Positions 1,997 to 37,809 of a stretch of 64,000 nucleotides of DNA are shown piece by piece. Origin of the DNA: an uncultured bacterium (GTDB lineage: Bacteria > Verrucomicrobiota > Kiritimatiellia > RFP12 > UBA1067); assembly GCA_902799385.1 (NCBI GenBank), contig CADCAK010000020.1, positions 33,771-97,770 of the forward strand. Reading direction: 5' to 3'. Numbering within the stretch: the stretch's first letter is position 1; every line of letters starts with the position of its first letter. A program made the translations under genes and the position numbers. Below the pieces are notes generated by a model, which worked only from the letters and a program-made list of their open reading frames with translations, was not told where the DNA came from and did not search any database.

Positions 1997-2065
1997 TTAC
2001 ATTCTCAACAACATACCGCGACAGTTCATAGGCGAGAAGAACGCCATTCGTGCAAAAGGTTTCAT
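1997..2065 (-). other. decayed MKPFAR leader-module ORF (22 codons)
   Basis: ATGAAACCTTTTGCACGAATG preceded by AAGAAAGGATCACCCC. Same module as at 16914 and 18504, but it lies upstream of the promoter. Confidence 0.3.
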
Positions 2066-2121
2066 GGGGTGATCCTTTCTTATTAAATGTAGAAATGTGA
2101 AAGTGCTGCCAATACCAATCC

Positions 2122-3433
2122 CTATTTCCAATTGGAACCGGCAACATTGTCATTGGCAACATTTCCACATTGGCAACATTTCCCTTTCGCCTCCCGCACA
2201 AGGCGCTTCAACTGACAGACCATATACATAGGAAGCGACAAGAGAGAATATCTACTTTTGCGGCCAAGGCTGTCGGCGGCCTCGGCATTTGGAAGCAGCG
2301 AAGGCTCGTCCATATTGAAGCGGACGGCAAAATCACGTTTCTTCTCGTTCAGGAAGAAGTTCAACGACTTGAGGCTGCCGGTCGCGCCACTCTTTACCTC
2401 AACCGGTATGATGTCGCCCCCCATCTGGATGACGTAATCGACCTCAGCTGAAGAATTTCTCGCCTCGCGCATCCAGCAATACGCCGCTGGCGTTTCGTAT
2501 TCCCTGCCGGAATAAAGTAGATGCTGCCCGACGAACTGCTCGCAAATCTCGCCTTTGCGAAGTGTGGCAAACCTTGGCGACGATGCGGGCAAGCTCCAAG
2601 CGCGAAAACGCCTTGGAAAGATCGTTCGACTTTACTCCGGGATCGATATGCGAATAGATGAGCTTGCGCCCCAACTGGCTCGGCACAGACAAAAATACTT
2701 TCTGCAAAAGTTCCGCATTGGCCCGTCTGCCGTACTTCGGGAAGTCGTCGTGATAGGTCGACAATATCGCATCCTGCTCGCGCTGCGCATCGTCGAGGCC
2801 GCTTTCGATATAGGCTTTTACGGCCGCCGGCATCCCACCCACCACAAGATAGCGCCTAAGCCACAGCGACAATTCCTTGTGCAGCGCCTCCGGCATGTCG
2901 TCGCCAACGGAATACCTGCCAATGAAGTTGACAAGTCCCGTCTTGCCCGCCGCCAAGAGAAATTCATCGAAGTCAAGCGGAGCAAGATACATGTATTCAA
3001 TCCGGCCTACCGGCATCGGGAACGCCTTGTCGGGATTTTGCGTCGCGGCAGAAAGCATGAACTCCAAAAGCGATCCTGCCGCAATCACATGAAGCCCGGG
3101 GCGTTTCTCGTAGAAATATCTAAGCGATTCGAACACATAAGGCTCCGCCGCCTGCAATTCATCAAGGAAAAGAAGCGTCTCGCCATCCTTTACGGGCACG
3201 GAAAACCGAGAATTCAAAAGTTCGCAAATGACGTTCGGGTTTTTAGACTCGAAAAACTTGACAAATGACGCATCCTCCTCAAAGTTGACCTCAATGAAAT
3301 GCTTGAAGCACTTGCGGGCAAACTCCCTCACCAAATAGGTTTTTCCAACCTGCCTCGCACCCCTCAAGATTAAAGGATGGCGGGTCGCACGTTCCTTCCA
3401 ATTCTTCAGGCTTTCTTCAAGTTTTCTCTCCAT
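2122..3433 (-). pseudogene. AAA+ ATPase with DUF4143/PD-(D/E)xK-like C-terminus (COG1373 type), disrupted by an internal deletion plus frameshift
   Basis: ORF 2444..3433 carries Walker A (GARQVGKT), Walker B (LLFLDELQ) and GGMPAAV. ORF 2122..2592 carries the C-terminus (EVDYVIQ...PVEVKSG). The frames switch near 2558, and about 43 codons present in paralogs 14719..16056 and 20636..21973 are missing. Confidence 0.8.
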
Positions 3434-14545: not shown

Positions 14546-14554
14546 ATATTACCA
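14546..14554 (-). promoter_or_regulatory. extended -10 element TGGTAATAT; probable leaderless hipB transcript
   Basis: TAATAT, then 6 nt, then ATG 14539. Confidence 0.5.
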
Positions 14555-14570
14555 CAATATATTGCCGTTG

Positions 14571-14642
14571 TCAATCGCGTCTAGAAGTGACAACACTCAT
14601 CACCGCTCCCGCGACGGCCCGCGCAAACAGTTTTGTTTTCAT
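14571..14642 (-). other. short ORF MKTKLFARAVAGAVMSVVTSRRD (diverged module A)
   Basis: Its ATG overlaps the TGA of the preceding short ORF. Confidence 0.3.
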
Positions 14643-16092: not shown

Positions 16093-16101
16093 ATTATACC
16101 A
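16093..16101 (-). promoter_or_regulatory. extended -10 element TGGTATAAT
   Basis: Lies 37 nt upstream of ATG 16056. Confidence 0.55.
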
Positions 16102-16289
16102 CAATCACCCCCTAAATGTCAATAGCCAAAAGTCAAAATCCAAGGAAATAAACTTTACTTAAACATCAAATTACAAAGATTACTTGTATGCTACCACATC
16201 AAAATCCAAGGTAAAAATCCATGTTGGATTTCTCCTTTGTGGTGTTTGTTTCTCCTTGCCCCCCGCACCGTGCGAAGGGAAAGAAAGCA

Positions 16290-16400
16290 TGTGTTGAATG
16301 TGCAAATATCCAATATCCAACAGCCAATATCCAATTTGCCCCGCCATCATTGAATAATGGATACTGGATATTGGATACTGGATAATTGCACATTCCATTC
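16290..16400. repeat. simple-sequence filler rich in CCAATATCC / TGGATA words
   Basis: gcaaatatccaatatccaacagccaatatccaatt...ggatactggatattggatactggataatt. Related words occur at 16781-16812. Confidence 0.6.
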
Positions 16401-16407
16401 CCACCAT

Positions 16408-16767
16408 TCACTGCTTGCAAATCCGTTTCCGCGCCGTGGACACGCTTGCGCCGAATATCCGCGAAATCTCCTGCGATTCCGTTATCAAGTCAGCAAGCTT
16501 CGTCTTTTCCACATAGCCTGATTCGCCAATCAGTTTGAGCCATATCCGCGTCTCAGACAACTCTTTCATGGACACCTTCAGCTTGTGCACGAAATCCTTG
16601 CCGGACTCCGCCTCGCAAGCCTCGGCGTAGTTTGCCGCGACGCTCGTAGAAGAACGAAAGAGCTGATCTGCGAAATTCGCGCTTCCGATATTCTTCACCG
16701 GCAACGCGGCGCACACCTTGACGCACCTCGCCGCAAATGCGACTACTCTGTCTTCAAGATCATTCAT
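16408..16767 (-). CDS. four-helix-bundle protein (23S rRNA intervening-sequence protein / Avd family)
   Basis: FADQLFRSSTSVAANYAEACEAESGKDFVHKLKVSMKELSETRIWLKLI matches the family signature as I remember it. Confidence 0.8.
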   Translation of the reverse strand: MNDLEDRVVAFAARCVKVCAALPVKNIGSANFADQLFRSSTSVAANYAEACEAESGKDFVHKLKVSMKELSETRIWLKLIGESGYVEKTKLADLITESQEISRIFGASVSTARKRICKQ

Positions 16768-16791
16768 CTTCTCTCCTCCACTGGATATTGG

Positions 16792-16914
16792 TTATTGGAT
16801 ATTGGATATTTGCACATTTTCACATTTCCCGCTCCCCCTACGCAGAGCGTCCACCTTCGCCAAGGCTACGGAGGACAAGACGGAGGACAAGTTGATTCGT
16901 GCAAATGGTTTCAT
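16792..16914 (-). other. upstream ORF MKPFARINLSSVLSSVALAKVDALRRGSGKCENVQISNIQ (module C/D)
   Basis: Preceded by AAAGGAGCACCCC. Ends 24 nt before ATG 16767. Confidence 0.35.
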
Positions 16915-16967
16915 GGGGTGCTCCTTTCGGTTATTGCCATACTATCCTCTTTCGCGTATCCATTTCG

Positions 16968-18323
16968 TCATTTCCTTTCCCGCTTGCGACCTTTTGAGCG
17001 CGGATCGTCATCTGGCGGAAGGAACGTCCCGATGAGCATTTCATTCTCAAGCGTTTCGCCGACAGGCGTGAATTCATGTCCGGTCACCTTCCCGCCTTCT
17101 GTATTGACATTGATCGAAACGCTGAGCGGATTGCCGTTCTCTCCTCCTCTGATGCGAATGCCGCCATCGACGGATGTTGCGCCAGACGGGATCTTCACCC
17201 ACAAATCTCCATACTTGTTCCAATGATCCTTGAACATGACTTCCACAGATTCGTCTGTGGCGTTGATACGCCATTCTTTGCGCCACGAGATATCCTTCTG
17301 CCCGGCATTGAACAGATGATAGCCTCCGTCTTCAAGCGCATAGAGCGAATATCCTTCGTCACCGGTGCAACTATCGGAGCCAAGCGCGATTCGCGCCCCC
17401 GATGCAAACACCAGACGGTAGTGCCGAGAACCTTTCAAACGCCTGCATTCAAGTGAAAACGGAACTTCGCCGCCGGCCAGTTTTATGGGATTCCATTGGG
17501 GCTCGATGATGTCCGCAAATGGATCGCCCTCGCCAGGCTCAAACCTTCCGCTCGGATAGAGAAGCCCAAGGTAGCTTCGCCCTTTCAGAGAATCTCCAAC
17601 TGGTGCCCCGCCATCCGCCCGCTTTTCGCCGTCTGCCGTCTTGGCCGTAATCGAGTCGTTTGCCCTGCTATCGACCTTGAGCGCACCTTCAGGGATATTC
17701 ACCCATGTTTCATCGCACATCATCTCCACCATTTCATTCGTCACATTGACGCGGTAGTCGCTGCGTATGAAGTCGTGTTCCAGTCCGTCCACGAGATAGT
17801 ATTCCCCGGTCGGCAGGCGATAGACCGCGAACGGTCCCGCACCGCCCGTGTCAATCCAAACGCCAATGCGCTTTCCTGACTTGAATACGATGGTCTTGTC
17901 GTACTCGGCGAGGAACGGATGCGCCGGACGATACTCGACCGCAAACTCAAGCGCGCTGGCATCGTTCGTCACGCTTGCGCTCTTAACCTCCGCATATCCA
18001 CTTGACGTCGCGTAGGCAACAACATCATGCGCTACAAATGCAAAGACCAACCCAAAGCCGAACAGGAACAACCCTGCTATGCCGAGGAAGAATTGCCCAA
18101 GCGCACGCAACCACTCACGCTCGTTGAGTGAAATGAACAATGCGATCAGCCATGCTATCGCCGCCAATACCTGCACGACGAACATCATATTGACCATCGC
18201 AGTCCCGAATCTGCCGAGCGGCGGCGATATTGCATACGCCGCGAACAGCAACAGCGCAGTGCAGCACCACGCGACAAACGGCCCGTACGCCGTCTCGAAT
18301 ACGAATTTCACAATCTTCTTCAT
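16968..18323 (-). CDS. membrane protein (N-terminal TM segments plus a tandemly duplicated soluble domain), unknown function
   Basis: ORF trimmed to MKKIVKFVF with SD AAAGGAAAG. Internal repeat: YRLPTGEYYLVDG...RVNVTNEMVEMM versus YALEDGGYHLFNA...RINATDESVEVM. Confidence 0.65.
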   Translation of the reverse strand: MKKIVKFVFETAYGPFVAWCCTALLLFAAYAISPPLGRFGTAMVNMMFVVQVLAAIAWLIALFISLNEREWLRALGQFFLGIAGLFLFGFGLVFAFVAHDVVAYATSSGYAEVKSASVTNDASALEFAVEYRPAHPFLAEYDKTIVFKSGKRIGVWIDTGGAGPFAVYRLPTGEYYLVDGLEHDFIRSDYRVNVTNEMVEMMCDETWVNIPEGALKVDSRANDSITAKTADGEKRADGGAPVGDSLKGRSYLGLLYPSGRFEPGEGDPFADIIEPQWNPIKLAGGEVPFSLECRRLKGSRHYRLVFASGARIALGSDSCTGDEGYSLYALEDGGYHLFNAGQKDISWRKEWRINATDESVEVMFKDHWNKYGDLWVKIPSGATSVDGGIRIRGGENGNPLSVSINVNTEGGKVTGHEFTPVGETLENEMLIGTFLPPDDDPRSKGRKRERK

Positions 18324-18336
18324 CGCCGCTTTCCTT

Positions 18337-18504
18337 TCATTGACAATTGGAATTGGTCTTGGAAACATTTTCACATTTGCAACATTTCCCGCTCCCCTTA
18401 CACAGAGCGTCCACCTTCGCCAAGGCTTCCCCCTTCGCCAAGGCTACGGAGGACAAGACGGAGGATAAAACGGAGGACAAGTTGATTCGTGCAAATGGTT
18501 TCAT
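18337..18504 (-). other. upstream ORF MKPFARINLSSVLSSV...CCKCENVSKTNSNCQ (module C/D)
   Basis: Its ATG overlaps the TGA of Sel1 gene 18501..19238 (ATGA). It stops 13 nt before ATG 18323. Confidence 0.4.
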
Positions 18505-19238
18505 GGGCGTTTTCCTTTCGTTGCCGTTGCCGACAGTTTGCCCAAGATTCGTTCCGCCACAGCGTGACCATGCTCCGCCGCCTTGCGAAGCCAGGATAGC
18601 CCCAGAGATTTTGACTTCCGCACGCCTTCTCCGTCCCGGTAGCATTCCCACAAATTGAACATGGCCTTTTCATCGCCGCGCCTTGCCGCCTTTCGGAACC
18701 AAGCGACAGCCTCCTTCGCATTCCCCTCGCATCCAATCCCATTGATCAGACACGCACCAAGATTGCACTGCGCCTTGACAACGCCAAGTTCCGCCGCGCG
18801 CTTGTACCAATAAACAGCTTTCTCATCGGACTGCCTTACCCCCTCGCCACGATCATAGCAAACACCAAGATTGTAGAACGCGAGTGCATCATCCATTCTC
18901 GCTCCTTTCCTATATAGCTTGACCGCTTCGAGGCAATCCCGCACTACGCCTTTCCCGTAATGGTAGCAATGCCCAAGGTTAACCCATGCCTCGAGTATTC
19001 CGTGGTCAGCCGCCTTGCGATACCATTCAACAGCCTTGCGGAAACTACGCCGGACAAGATTCCCGTCTTCGTAGACAAAGCCCATTTCGTACTCGGCATC
19101 GGGCAAGCCGTTTCGCGCCGCCTTGCGGAGCCATTTTATACACTCCACATTTTCACCACGATCTCTGCAGTCGAAATATAGTTGATACTGCGCATCAGCA
19201 TCATCATGGCCTGCAATGTTTCTACCTTTAATCTCCAT
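18501..19238 (-). CDS. Sel1-repeat protein (no signal peptide seen)
   Basis: Repeated AxxxxGxxYxxGxGVxxxxxxAxxWxRKAA units. Confidence 0.85.
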   Translation of the reverse strand: MEIKGRNIAGHDDADAQYQLYFDCRDRGENVECIKWLRKAARNGLPDAEYEMGFVYEDGNLVRRSFRKAVEWYRKAADHGILEAWVNLGHCYHYGKGVVRDCLEAVKLYRKGARMDDALAFYNLGVCYDRGEGVRQSDEKAVYWYKRAAELGVVKAQCNLGACLINGIGCEGNAKEAVAWFRKAARRGDEKAMFNLWECYRDGEGVRKSKSLGLSWLRKAAEHGHAVAERILGKLSATATKGKRP

Positions 19239-19245
19239 CCTTCAT

Positions 19246-19326
19246 CTACTCCTTTCGCTTGCCGCCCGCAGGGTTTAGTTCCGCCAGTGCCATCCCACAC
19301 CACACCGCCATCATCATTTTCTTCAT
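19246..19326 (-). other. short ORF MKKMMMAVWCGMALAELNPAGGKRKE; looks like a truncated signal peptide
   Basis: Uses the same AAGGAGAACGGCGATGAAGAA start context as gene 16968..18323. Confidence 0.3.
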
Positions 19327-19339
19327 CGCCGTTCTCCTT

Positions 19340-19426
19340 TCATTGGCAATTGGAATTGGTCTTGGCAACATTTTCACATTGGCAATATTCTCCTCCAACC
19401 CGCGCAAATATCATCCGCGTATTCAT
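19340..19426 (-). other. upstream ORF MNTRMIFARVGGEYCQCENVAKTNSNCQ (module A fused to module D)
   Basis: Its ATG overlaps the TGA of gene 19423..20529, in the context GGAGGAATCGAAATGA. Confidence 0.4.
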
Positions 19427-20529
19427 TTCGATTCCTCCGTTGACGGTTCTTCTTGTCCTTCTCGCCAAAGGCGCGAGGTCCTTATTTGCGGAAACAAGCC
19501 ATCCGAAATGCTGACAACCGCTCGCAATTCACATTCGTCTGGAAGATCAAACCGCTTGCGAACCTCCTCGGGACGACGCCAAACATAGACACTGAGCCTT
19601 ATGCCGTCTGGACGCACCGCATCCAGCCGGAACCGCCAAGCCCCCGGCTCACTGTCGGCCGAAACGCGGTCAACCGCGCCGTCGCAGTCGAAGCCGTCGG
19701 CCCGAGCCAGCTTCAGAACCTCGTCTTCAGCAGCCTTGCGCTCTTCGTTCGAGAGCGACATTGGATAGTTGCGACCGAACGCGATACCGGAGATCGTCTT
19801 CGTGCGCAGCGAATATTCGGCGTAGCTGTGCGTGAAGAGTGGATGGTCAAGCGGCACGCAATCCTCTCTCCAGTAGCGAACCTTAACTCCACCCACTTCA
19901 ATGCAACCGTCGAGAAGCGTCGCCCCCGGCGGCGCGACCTTTGGAATCTTCACTCCAAGAAGTTTGTCGGGGAACTCAGTAGCCTGCGGCACCTGCGGAG
20001 GAGGCTCGCCGTTTTCCTTCACCCACGCCGCCCACTCGTCGTCATTCATCAGCCGCACCGACAAGTCAAGCACCTTTTGGTTGTCATCGCATTCCTTAAA
20101 GTGAAACTCGCCCGCAAGCCCTGAGTTAGCCGCCCAGATCATCCTCATAGGGTCGTGAGTCCAACGACTACTACTTAACGTGCCCTTGGCTCGAACTGCA
20201 GGCAGTTCTAATTGACAATCCCATATCAATTCCTCCCGCGACTTGCTGTCCCATTCCTGCGAAAGGTCGCGCGAACGCAGGACGATACATTCCGCCCTGC
20301 CCGAAGCACCGCGCACGACTCTCGCCCACTTCCAGTCCTTGTGCTTGACATTCACCCACTGCCCCGTCGAATTCAGCGACGCCACCTCAATTCCAAACAA
20401 CTGTTCCGGCAATTCTGCCGCGCGTCCCCACGCCACATTCGCCACCACCGCCTCGCCATGCCTGGCCATGATGGCAATCGCTATGGCCGCAGCAATCGCA
20501 AGCGCTGCAAATACGATTTTCTTATTCAT
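19423..20529 (-). CDS. secreted 368-aa protein of unknown function
   Basis: MNKKIVFAALAIAAAIAIAIMA is a signal/anchor sequence. The last codons (TEESK) are encoded by the junction module. Confidence 0.65.
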   Translation of the reverse strand: MNKKIVFAALAIAAAIAIAIMARHGEAVVANVAWGRAAELPEQLFGIEVASLNSTGQWVNVKHKDWKWARVVRGASGRAECIVLRSRDLSQEWDSKSREELIWDCQLELPAVRAKGTLSSSRWTHDPMRMIWAANSGLAGEFHFKECDDNQKVLDLSVRLMNDDEWAAWVKENGEPPPQVPQATEFPDKLLGVKIPKVAPPGATLLDGCIEVGGVKVRYWREDCVPLDHPLFTHSYAEYSLRTKTISGIAFGRNYPMSLSNEERKAAEDEVLKLARADGFDCDGAVDRVSADSEPGAWRFRLDAVRPDGIRLSVYVWRRPEEVRKRFDLPDECELRAVVSISDGLFPQIRTSRLWREGQEEPSTEESK

Positions 20530-21999: not shown

Positions 22000-22008
22000 A
22001 TTATATCA
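22000..22008 (-). promoter_or_regulatory. extended -10 element TGATATAAT
   Basis: Lies 27 nt upstream of ATG 21973. Confidence 0.55.
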
Positions 22009-22121
22009 CACTTTGGACATTTTTACAAGTGGCCACCGGCCGAATTCTACATTTTTCCAAGATGAAATCACAGCCAATCATACACTTTTCCAAAACCGCC
22101 TGCAATAATTTTTGGCGAAAG

Positions 22122-36987: not shown

Positions 36988-37809
36988 TCACGCCACCCTT
37001 TCCGCCGCCTTCGCGAGCCGCCATCCGTGCGTCGCGTAGCCTATCTCTCCCACCTCCCTTGCCGCGACGCTTCGCGACCGGAACCTGTCCCCCAGCGCAA
37101 ATGCCGTCGCAGTCACGAACGCGAGACTTCCGAATATCTTCCCCGCCCCTATCTGCGCCACCCTCCTCATCAGCCTCTCGTCGGGGACAGGCCCCGCGGA
37201 AGTGCCGTCAGACGTGGCGATCCAGCTCCAGGCGTAGTCGGCGGCGTGCTTCACCATCCCCGCACGGACGGGGTTCAGGTAGACGTAGCGCATGCAGAGC
37301 GCACGGTAGCGACCGTCCTCGACCAAGGTCGACTTGAAGCGGCCGTCCCATATCGAGCCGCTGTAGTCGTGCTCGCGCTTGAACCAGACGTTGAAGAGCT
37401 CCTTGAACGTCTTTATGAACTCGCTTACGTCGTTCATCCGCGCACGAAGGCGATCCTGCGCCTCGGCAACTGCGGAATCCATGCCGATGTCGCGAAGCTC
37501 CTTCCAGTGCTCGGCGAGTTCGGCTGCCGCTCGCTCGCCCTTCAGCGCCGCGACACGGCGGAGTAACTCGTCCTCGGTCAGCTCCTCCCCGCCATGCACC
37601 ACCTTGCAGACTATGTGGAAGTGGTTATCCATCGCGACATACGCCTCGAGCTCCACTCCAGAGAACGCCGCCGCGCGCTTCAGTGCATTCACGAGCTGCG
37701 TCTTGATCCTCCCCTTCACGAACAGGAAACGCCTGTCGTTCGTGCGCGACATGAGGTGGTATCGCGCGGTTCCGTTGTTCGATTTCTTGATCCTTGCCGG
37801 TCTTGCCAT
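36988..37809 (-). CDS. REP-associated tyrosine transposase-like protein (IS200/HUH Y1 family)
   Basis: HUH motif DNHFHIV and catalytic-Tyr region YVYLNPVRAGMV. Confidence 0.8.
   Translation of the reverse strand: MARPARIKKSNNGTARYHLMSRTNDRRFLFVKGRIKTQLVNALKRAAAFSGVELEAYVAMDNHFHIVCKVVHGGEELTEDELLRRVAALKGERAAAELAEHWKELRDIGMDSAVAEAQDRLRARMNDVSEFIKTFKELFNVWFKREHDYSGSIWDGRFKSTLVEDGRYRALCMRYVYLNPVRAGMVKHAADYAWSWIATSDGTSAGPVPDERLMRRVAQIGAGKIFGSLAFVTATAFALGDRFRSRSVAAREVGEIGYATHGWRLAKAAERVA

Follow-up and report, generated by a model that had tools for sequence, protein, structure and literature searches.

Truncated lipoprotein gene starts joined to hairpin-repeat arms as probable connectors of cassette arrays in rumen Kiritimatiellia

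We analysed a 64,000-nucleotide (nt) stretch of an uncultured Kiritimatiellia bacterium (GenBank assembly GCA_902799385.1, contig CADCAK010000020.1, positions 33,771 to 97,770 of the forward strand; hereafter the window), in which an earlier sequence-only reading had proposed a family of short, cysteine-rich leader peptides encoded directly upstream of genes. We find that the feature is probably a composite connector between exchangeable cassettes in an accessory-gene array of rumen Kiritimatiellia, and that the Cys-rich peptide is most likely a by-product. The 'leader peptides' would be truncated lipoprotein gene starts, each fused to a single hairpin-repeat arm. In what follows we show how modules build up the connector, that relatives have its intact form, that no peptide-level constraint acts on the arm, that cassettes are shared between species and that connectors are over-represented in metagenomes; the structural origin is well supported, and a ribosome-relay function of the resulting mini open reading frames (mini-ORFs) is plausible but unproven.

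Four modules would make up such a connector: a nucleotide-conserved 5' gene module consisting of a ribosome-binding site (RBS), an ATG and the signal peptide MKPFAR-ILVSSLALAAG-C, which in its intact form starts unrelated lipoprotein genes; palindromic units resembling repetitive extragenic palindromes (REP), nested in frame in the signal-peptide code (NLSS..ALRRG, including tandem units of 12 and 18 nt); a solitary arm of the kind found, as simple-sequence inverted repeats, on either side of PF05635 genes; and a standard RBS. In the window, the 5' module would have been cut after RRG and joined to an arm, the 'leader peptide' then being a truncated signal peptide followed by repeat DNA translated in frame. 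All window features studied here lie on the minus strand, and the sequences compared with them are contigs of metagenome-assembled genomes (MAGs) and metagenomes.

The leader is a truncated signal-peptide gene start

The 24-mer ATGAAACCATTTGCACGAATCAAC has exact matches in the window at 16891-16914 and 18481-18504, and at up to three mismatches there are two matches against 0.00 expected (100 shuffles). Each copy is preceded by an GAAAGGAG-type RBS and starts a short ORF (40 or 55 codons), so the recurrent family with its own RBS that had been seen at 16914 and 18504 is real, and the second ATG does overlap the TGA of a Sel1-repeat gene, as ATGA. The parts of the two copies (family B below) are as follows.

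16891-16928, minus strand: 5' module copy 1, RBS GAAAGGAG (16921-16928) plus ATGAAACCATTTGCACGAATCAAC, ATG at 16914; RBS and start of this kind open 83 real genes elsewhere
16792-16914, minus strand: mini-ORF 1, 40 amino acids (aa), MKPFARINLSSVLSSVALAKVDALRRGSGKCENVQISNIQ; truncated signal peptide, in-frame insert and E-type arm
16833-16893, minus strand: nested palindromic insert NLSSVLSSVALAKVDALRRGS, which holds the REP-like unit CTTG-TCCTCC-GTAGCCTTGGCGAAGG-TGGA
18481-18519, minus strand: 5' module copy 2, whose RBS region doubles as code for the Sel1 C-terminal residues TKGKRP
18337-18504, minus strand: mini-ORF 2, 55 aa, ending in ...GKCCKCENVSKTNSNCQ; its TGA lies inside the RBS of a 451-aa gene
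18391-18484, minus strand: expanded nested insert, with one more 12-nt unit (LSSV) and one more 18-nt unit (ALAKGE) than copy 1

We gathered 226 distinct copies of the RBS followed by ATGAAACCNTTTGCACGAAT from related rumen Kiritimatiellia MAGs and metagenomes. Eighty-three of them start ORFs of at least 70 aa, typically MKPFARIILVSSLALAAGC lipoproteins, whose mature parts form 28 unrelated clusters; the N-terminus of these real genes, MKPFAR(I/M)ILVSSLALAAGC, is a lipoprotein signal peptide, with a lipobox in 50/83. Another 140 copies (62%), both window copies included, are truncated mini-ORFs that break off at four recurrent module edges, namely after ARI, RRG, SSLA (VSSLA) or LAAG, the window copies belonging to the RRG class. 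These two keep only MKPFAR and the insert, without ILVSSLALAAGC, and neither contains a lipoprotein (signal peptidase II) signal peptide. Since the intact form is a signal-peptide gene start and the window copies are of the class cut after RRG, the 'leader' is a truncated signal-peptide gene start. The co-occurrence with genes for exported proteins, which the sequence-only reading had named as a check, holds for the intact form only: the truncated leaders of the window precede other kinds of gene, encoding a polytopic membrane protein and a cytoplasmic four-helix-bundle protein.

Across the order, the RBS+ATGAAACCNTTTGCACGAAT pattern occurs in 22 of 201 genomes and 5 of 45 genera, with copies clustered at up to 7 per 10 kb, and it was also found on 73 metagenome contigs; a reversed control pattern gave 0 matches in the same genome set. 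The exact RBS and start had no match in viral contigs, on which ground we rejected a phage or plasmid origin. The locus L034 (G184:C28, 10659-12050) holds two tandem units, each comprising an MKPFARI mini-ORF, a C arm (see below), a four-helix-bundle gene, a right arm, an RBS and a real MKPFAR gene; the B start module stands there as a 35-nt direct repeat on both sides of each armed cassette.

Palindromic units are nested in frame in the signal peptide

The stretch NLSSVLSSVALAK..RRG of the window leaders is a nested, in-frame palindromic insert that is optional in real genes. Between MKPFAR and ILVSS, 42 real genes carry the insert INLSS(VLSS)n(ALAKGx)nALRRG and 36 do not, and one lipocalin-like gene was found in both forms. 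The core of the insert, CTTG-TCCTCC-GTAGCCTTGGCGAAGG-TGGA, is a small stem-loop unit that recurs roughly a dozen times elsewhere in this genome, in either orientation, and many times in other families of the order; its reverse complement forms a 30-nt insert within C arms, where it reads PPSPRLRRSR.

In a metatranscriptome contig from another strain with the same context, 16832 is joined to 16894 with one letter between them, a net loss of 60 nt. The RRG and VSSLA classes differ by a 30-nt insertion or deletion (indel) between GGGGA repeats (window vs the same cassette in another species), and the VSSLA class continues with REGRG, an imperfect inverted complement of the sequence encoding the hydrophobic (h-) region; the resulting stem of ~10 bp keeps its pairing through changes on both sides in at least one variant. 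The connector indels seen measure 12, 18, 30, 30 and 60 nt, all multiples of 3.

The Cys-rich half is one arm of a hairpin repeat

The 3' part of the leaders recurs in the window much as had been described: 18308-18386 and 19311-19389 are 89% identical, and a diverged copy lies at 2146-2192. The arms and the genes next to them are these.

16408-16767, minus strand: four-helix-bundle gene (PF05635 / TIGR02436), cargo between arms
16782-16818, minus strand: left arm, CCAATAT heptamer type; gives mini-ORF 1 the peptide tail GKCENVQISNIQ and forms an inverted repeat with 16297-16333
16296-16395, minus strand: right arm (16297-16333) and an additional arm copy (16358-16395), a local hairpin 3' of the four-helix-bundle gene
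18332-18390, minus strand: solitary C-type arm GTTGCAAATGTGAAAATGTTTCCAAGACCAATTCCAATTGTCAATGAAAGGA, a profile hit, with an RBS at its end and no inverted partner nearby
19335-19392, minus strand: second solitary C-type arm with RBS, found by repeat family and profile hit
1997-2190, minus strand: gene-less hairpin (arms 2146-2171 and 2094-2119), then RBS and a decayed B leader (ATG 2065, 22 codons)

Mini-ORF 1 stops 24 nt before the ATG of the four-helix-bundle gene, which is bracketed by a 37-nt inverted repeat (16297-16333 and 16782-16818, 95% complementary, 448 nt between the arms), and the left arm of this repeat is the 3' end of the mini-ORF (GKCENVQISNIQ). The locus is thereby a PF05635 hairpin cassette similar to the intervening sequences (IVSs) of rRNA genes, with an ORF (16408-16767) between long inverted arms of short tandem repeats. 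Inverted simple-sequence arms surround every complete four-helix-bundle gene that we sampled in relatives and in this genome, and they are of three types: C (GTTGCCAATGT...), E (CCAATAT heptamers) and a third (GTGAGATTGTG). Two further four-helix-bundle genes of the same genome (C47:6368-6709 and C66:13056-13199) have GTGAGATTGTG-type arms, the arm family thus varying within one genome. A literature search on PF05635 together with inverted repeats returned nothing relevant.

The two window leaders end in different arm families, CCAATAT-type at 16.8 kb and GTTGCCAATGT-type at 18.3 kb, and the C-terminal halves of their peptides differ. Both solitary C arms (18332-18390 and 19335-19392) end in AATGAAAGGA, an RBS, and an inverted-repeat scan found no inverted partner near the arms at 18.3 and 19.3 kb. 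The RBS and start context GAAAGGA-N8-ATGAAGAA is indeed reused, before the 451-aa gene (ATG 18323) and before a 26-codon ORF (ATG 19326).

We then asked what the arm conserves. The 124 distinct C arms divide into 57 preceded by a B leader, 8 preceded by a leader of the other family (A), 52 that lack any leader within 220 nt and 7 right arms, which lie on the opposite strand. Read in the Cys frame, 35 distinct full-length arms have mean entropies of 0.31/0.31/0.24 at the three codon positions, and their differences from the consensus comprise 16 synonymous and 122 nonsynonymous changes (11.6% synonymous vs 17.6% expected at random). Peptide-level selection on the arm was rejected on these codon-position entropies and synonymous counts; the constraint on the arm acts on nucleic acid, not on the peptide. 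We likewise rejected a riboswitch-like or structured leader, since RNA folding of both connectors was no more stable than that of shuffled sequences (z +0.85 and +0.43); an Rfam scan of the whole window found no family. What had been read as a dedicated leader with a Cys-rich peptide is, in its 5' half, a truncated lipoprotein signal peptide and, in its Cys-rich half, a hairpin arm without a codon-position signal.

The locus near 2 kb had been taken for a decayed copy of the leader at 2065. A real MKPFARM start is present there, but the order is reversed and not that of a decayed leader followed by an arm: the hairpin arms 2094-2119 and 2146-2171 (81% complementary) come first, followed by the RBS and MKPFARM (ATG 2065), so that the locus is a 'right arm + RBS + leader' arrangement. 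The claim that the repeat supplies the tail of a decayed ATPase was borne out: 2119-2190 encodes the tail ...REAKGKCCQCGNVANDNVAGSNWK of a frameshifted DUF4143 ATPase, with GKCCQCGNVANDNVAGSNWK read from the diverged repeat copy.

Two leader families are versions of one architecture

A second leader family, which begins with MNTRMMFAR (family A, with MKPFAR as family B), shows the same split into real and truncated forms, with 9 real lipoprotein starts vs 43 truncated mini-ORFs, and its mini-ORFs join the same C arm, an GACAGGATT arm or a short RBS connector. A and B are two versions of one architecture, in line with the earlier suggestion that the two families are variants of one system. The residues F-A-R are common to both, and the differences are synonymous (TTT GCG CGG vs TTT GCA CGA); a search for A/B hybrid leaders, which would betray crossover at the shared core, found none, and FAR as a general N-terminal signal-peptide motif was not enriched over permuted motifs genome-wide.

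19340-19426, minus strand: A-family mini-ORF MNTRMIFARVGGEYCQCENVAKTNSNCQ; its ATG overlaps the stop of a 368-aa gene, and the C arm is joined in the same frame
19246-19326, minus strand: truncated form (26 codons) of a third 5' module, MKKMMMAVWCGMALAELNPAGGKRKE*, with the C arm on one side and the Sel1 gene on the other

This third reused start, MKKMMMAV..., is truncated at 19246-19326 and begins full-length exported proteins in relatives (e.g. 258 aa, L037). A further motif, CCNTTGTAAAANGCCTGTTTGCGCGG, is shared by non-coding DNA at ~24830 (the distal end of the island described below) and at ~36640 (minus strand, downstream of a gene resembling REP-associated tyrosine transposases, RAYT); the TTTGCGCGG core of the A leader lies within this motif.

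Cassettes recur in other species behind different connectors

Every gene in window positions 1-26,500 is on the minus strand, and the genes there (DUF4143 ATPases, hipBA, Sel1 proteins, small membrane proteins and one four-helix-bundle gene) make up an accessory island. As in integron arrays, the cassettes are co-oriented and mostly promoterless, their content varies between relatives, and hairpin-forming junctions are present.

16968-18323, minus strand: 451-aa membrane-protein cassette, in five other genomes at 82-93% identity and in four upstream contexts
18501-19238, minus strand: Sel1-repeat gene, a cassette whose stop overlaps the mini-ORF 2 ATG (18504) as ATGA

The 368-aa gene (19423-20529) recurs in another species at 98.9% identity over 1134 nt. 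There it follows a B leader and a C arm; in the window it follows an A leader and an GACAGGATT arm, and the two copies cease to match within the RBS at one edge and ~17 nt into the next leader at the opposite edge. Four other ruminant metagenomes contain the neighbours of this cassette and cover the cassette itself (19491-20358) at near-zero depth, a presence/absence polymorphism bounded by leaders. The 451-aa gene is preceded elsewhere by a B leader of another class with a C arm, by its own TATAAT promoter or by two other sequences, and in other genomes its 3' end always bears an A-leader start, intact or decayed. In the window, the 3' untranslated stretch of the gene (16929-16967, minus strand, cgaaATGGATACGCGAAAGAGGATAGTATGGC) is itself a decayed MNTRMMFAR-family start; because the cassette elsewhere has an intact or differently decayed A leader at this place, its 3' end carries the beginning of the next leader.

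Cassettes recur in other species at 85-99% identity behind different connectors, and metagenome contigs join connectors in other combinations. By contig depth in the four ruminant metagenomes, connectors are 10-100x as abundant as cassettes. No tyrosine recombinase was found on the array contigs of 13 genomes, whose PF00589 hits all lay on other contigs, the MAG contigs being fragmented.

Strong extended -10 promoters (TGnTATAAT) stand only before ATPase and hipB genes, at 16093-16122, 22000-22028 and 14546-14574 (minus strand; 12/12, 10/12 and 10/12 matches), and the cassettes between them lack any promoter of their own, so the island consists of short operons headed by those genes. Outside the island, a RAYT-like 273-aa ORF (36988-37809, minus strand) matches the RAYT model NF047646 (E 1.5e-18, 67 bits vs an 80-bit cut-off) and also PF01797; its flanks show no obvious REP-like units, and related genomes hold 0-33 RAYT-like genes.

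Mechanism and rival explanations

We reasoned that the repeated 5' modules flanking every cassette would act as portable homology, so that cassettes could be gained, lost or swapped by recombination. The mini-ORF may in addition still be translated and carry ribosomes that arrive from the upstream gene over the repeat as far as the next RBS; we give this somewhat less than an even chance, and suggest it on account of the usual mini-ORF layout, in which the start overlaps the upstream stop (ATGA) and the end falls within or next to the following start. Specifically, 76/205 copies have an upstream ORF (at least 60 codons) whose stop lies in the ATGA of the leader, and in a further 91/205 it lies 0-30 nt before the ATG. 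At the other end, among 59 mini-ORFs with an identifiable next gene, there are 16 ATGA and 4 TAATG overlaps, and most stops lie in or beside the next RBS or ATG; mini-ORFs of the C-arm class end at a TGA inside the RBS.

Some points weigh against the account of connectors with by-product peptides as a whole. The mini-ORFs show on average 1.24 mismatches over the RBS and the following 21 nt, vs 1.32 in real genes; scars in decay would not be expected to match real genes so well, and selection could act on the start itself. Connector indels are multiples of 3, and at several independent junctions the arm has come to lie in one and the same frame, both of them hints of an ORF that is kept open. 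Our copies were gathered with the conserved RBS and start as bait, which favours well-kept copies and under-samples badly decayed ones; they share descent, and their counts are thus not independent; and all data come from MAG and metagenome contigs, which break at repeats. Finally, no recombination event, enzyme or intermediate was observed.

It has been argued that copies without intact ORFs or without adjacency to genes would mark the repeats as plain intergenic debris. Only the first half of that description applies: some copies do have stops, frameshifts or lost start codons, and all copies are tightly gene-adjacent, so 'plain debris' does not fit either. The notion of old debris was also rejected on the RBS and 21-nt comparison, truncated leaders being no more decayed than real gene starts.

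The strongest rival holds that the relay is itself the selected function: translation of the mini-ORF would be maintained irrespective of its amino-acid sequence, re-initiating at the upstream stop, unwinding the repeat or hairpin, preventing polarity and delivering ribosomes to the next RBS. The start and stop geometry fits, as do an RBS and start as conserved as in real genes (the ATG is kept in 135/140 mini-ORFs), the frame-preserving connector indels and the leaderless junctions that also make same-frame ATG ORFs abutting the upstream stop (MECCQCGNV..., MPVKIWPRNKCCQC...). One RNA contig also covers gene end, leader and arm; such metatranscriptome contigs are assembled fragments that may contain DNA and indicate at best co-transcription of one junction. 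However, ~10-15% of copies have a premature stop, a frameshift or a lost ATG, several leaderless arms have no covering ORF, an open frame comes cheaply because the arms (read from the consensus) are stop-poor in 5/6 frames, and the ATGA overlaps follow simply from lysine second codons (AAA/AAG). Moreover, connector RNA at shuffle-level stability may leave little to unwind at a solitary arm. We regard this rival as rather unlikely.

A site-specific system resembling integrons would instead make the TTTGCRCGR core of both leader families an att-like crossover site for a recombinase, at which cassettes would be excised and inserted. The promoterless, co-oriented cassettes with repeated hairpin-forming junctions speak for it. 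In addition, both leader families, where they are fused to the C arm, are cut at an equivalent place immediately past this core, several breakpoints fall a short way 5' of it, nucleotide-level conservation of the start module extends to most third codon positions, and the spread over genomes and genera is patchy (22/201 and 5/45). Set against this are the lack of a tyrosine recombinase on any array contig of the 13 genomes, truncation at four points and not one, the lack of A/B hybrids, core differences between A and B that are synonymous and fit protein-level conservation of F-A-R, and the lack of matches in viral contigs; we consider a system of this kind improbable. Least credible by far is a regulatory role as leader peptide or attenuator, or a function as Cys-rich small protein or as precursor of a ribosomally synthesized and post-translationally modified peptide (RiPP). 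The own RBS, the short ORF, the four cysteines in CCxC...C and the position directly upstream of genes first pointed that way, but no peptide-level constraint was found, the C-terminal halves of the window copies differ and the same DNA occurs reversed and outside ORFs. For an attenuator, the connectors lack a terminator-like hairpin followed by a U-run, their coding (minus) strand has no sigma-70-like promoter, they fold as shuffles do and they match no Rfam family; for a RiPP or Cys-rich bacteriocin, no modifying enzymes are among the neighbours (Sel1, membrane protein, four-helix-bundle protein, DUF4143 ATPases).

Having weighed these, we return to the composite connector, which can be carried one step further, albeit speculatively and with doubt on our part: the 5' modules (MKPFAR, MNTRMMFAR) might serve as recombination sites without an integron integrase and, when truncated, as ribosome relays that take translation over the hairpin-repeat connectors into the following cassette, with the arms of PF05635 cassettes domesticated as 5' untranslated adapters. 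Recombination would then proceed by homology or through some enzyme acting at the TTTGCRCGR core.

Our results remove a false lead, in that there is no new family of Cys-rich leader peptides here. At more than 200 sampled junctions of uncultured rumen bacteria stands one nucleotide-conserved start module, by which unrelated exported proteins share a signal peptide at the DNA level. This is an unusual organisation of accessory genes, in which selfish palindromes sit in frame in a signal peptide and the hairpin arms of four-helix-bundle genes are reused as RBS-bearing adapters. If the modules are both recombination handles and ribosome relays, the arrays would be an integrase-free analogue of integrons with repeats built into operon translation. 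For annotation, the connectors account for many spurious small ORFs and odd C-terminal tails in MAGs of the Planctomycetes-Verrucomicrobia-Chlamydiae (PVC) group.

Relation to known systems

Conceptually, the arrays come closest to integron cassette arrays and to the rAID-1 arrays of gut Bacteroidales. Integron cassettes carry 3' attC hairpins with conserved R/L boxes (GTTRRRY core), and in class 1 integrons ORF-11, within attI1, boosts translation of the first cassette. The arrays described here share with them co-oriented, mostly promoterless cassettes, imperfect palindromes at every junction and content that differs between close relatives; the short junction ORF with its own RBS could couple translation, and such a relay would resemble ORF-11. 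They differ in having neither an adjacent IntI with attI nor another tyrosine recombinase on the array contigs; in a conserved junction that is a 5' gene module (RBS, ATG and signal peptide) with several truncation points and not a 3' attC; and in cassettes, the DUF4143 ATPases, that have strong promoters of their own. The rAID-1 orphan-immunity arrays of Bacteroidales have intergenic repeats 'reminiscent of integrons' and a conserved XerD-family recombinase (Ross et al., bioRxiv 10.1101/471110). Long arrays of small, diverse genes, often exported or Sel1-type, repetitive intergenic sequence, a gut habitat and horizontal sharing are common to both; the defining XerD-family recombinase was not found on the array contigs here, and the repeated element here includes a coding start.

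For the nested units, REP sequences and bacterial interspersed mosaic elements (BIMEs) with RAYT, and repeats like miniature inverted-repeat transposable elements (MITEs), offer GC-rich stem-loops of 26-30 nt (TCCGCC-N14-GGCGGA type) that are nested, tandemly expanded and present in both orientations, 12 units being counted in this genome, and the window has a RAYT-like gene at 36988-37809 (below the curated cut-off, 67 vs 80 bits); here, however, the units lie within a coding 5' end, in frame. The Rickettsia palindromic elements, reportedly described by Ogata and colleagues in 2000 as in-frame selfish repeats inside protein genes, are alike in placing palindromes in functional ORFs, just as NLSS..ALRRG lies in the n-region of working lipoprotein signal peptides; our units, at 30-78 nt, are far smaller than those elements, can expand in tandem and are restricted to a single site of a single signal-peptide family.

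For the shared start, lipoprotein families with a conserved 5' untranslated region and signal peptide are known from Mycoplasma (vlp, vsp, vsa) and from Borrelia. They too have near-identical RBS and signal-peptide DNA before different mature lipoproteins, with the shared 5' end as a recombination substrate; here there are 28 unrelated mature clusters, no logic of expression sites and silent copies, no inversion, and most copies are mini-ORFs. For the arms, the closest parallels are ORF-bearing 23S rRNA IVSs with an S23p/PF05635 gene, such as the Coxiella IVS (PMC4990558), and intergenic heptamer repeats (PMC4692102). The PF05635 gene in the loop of a long stem of short tandem repeats is the same; here, however, the cassette stands between protein genes, and at 18.3 and 19.3 kb a solitary arm is fused to an RBS used by other genes. 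Set beside all of these, the system is a new form of repeat-mediated cassette array, and its peptides are themselves ordinary by-products.

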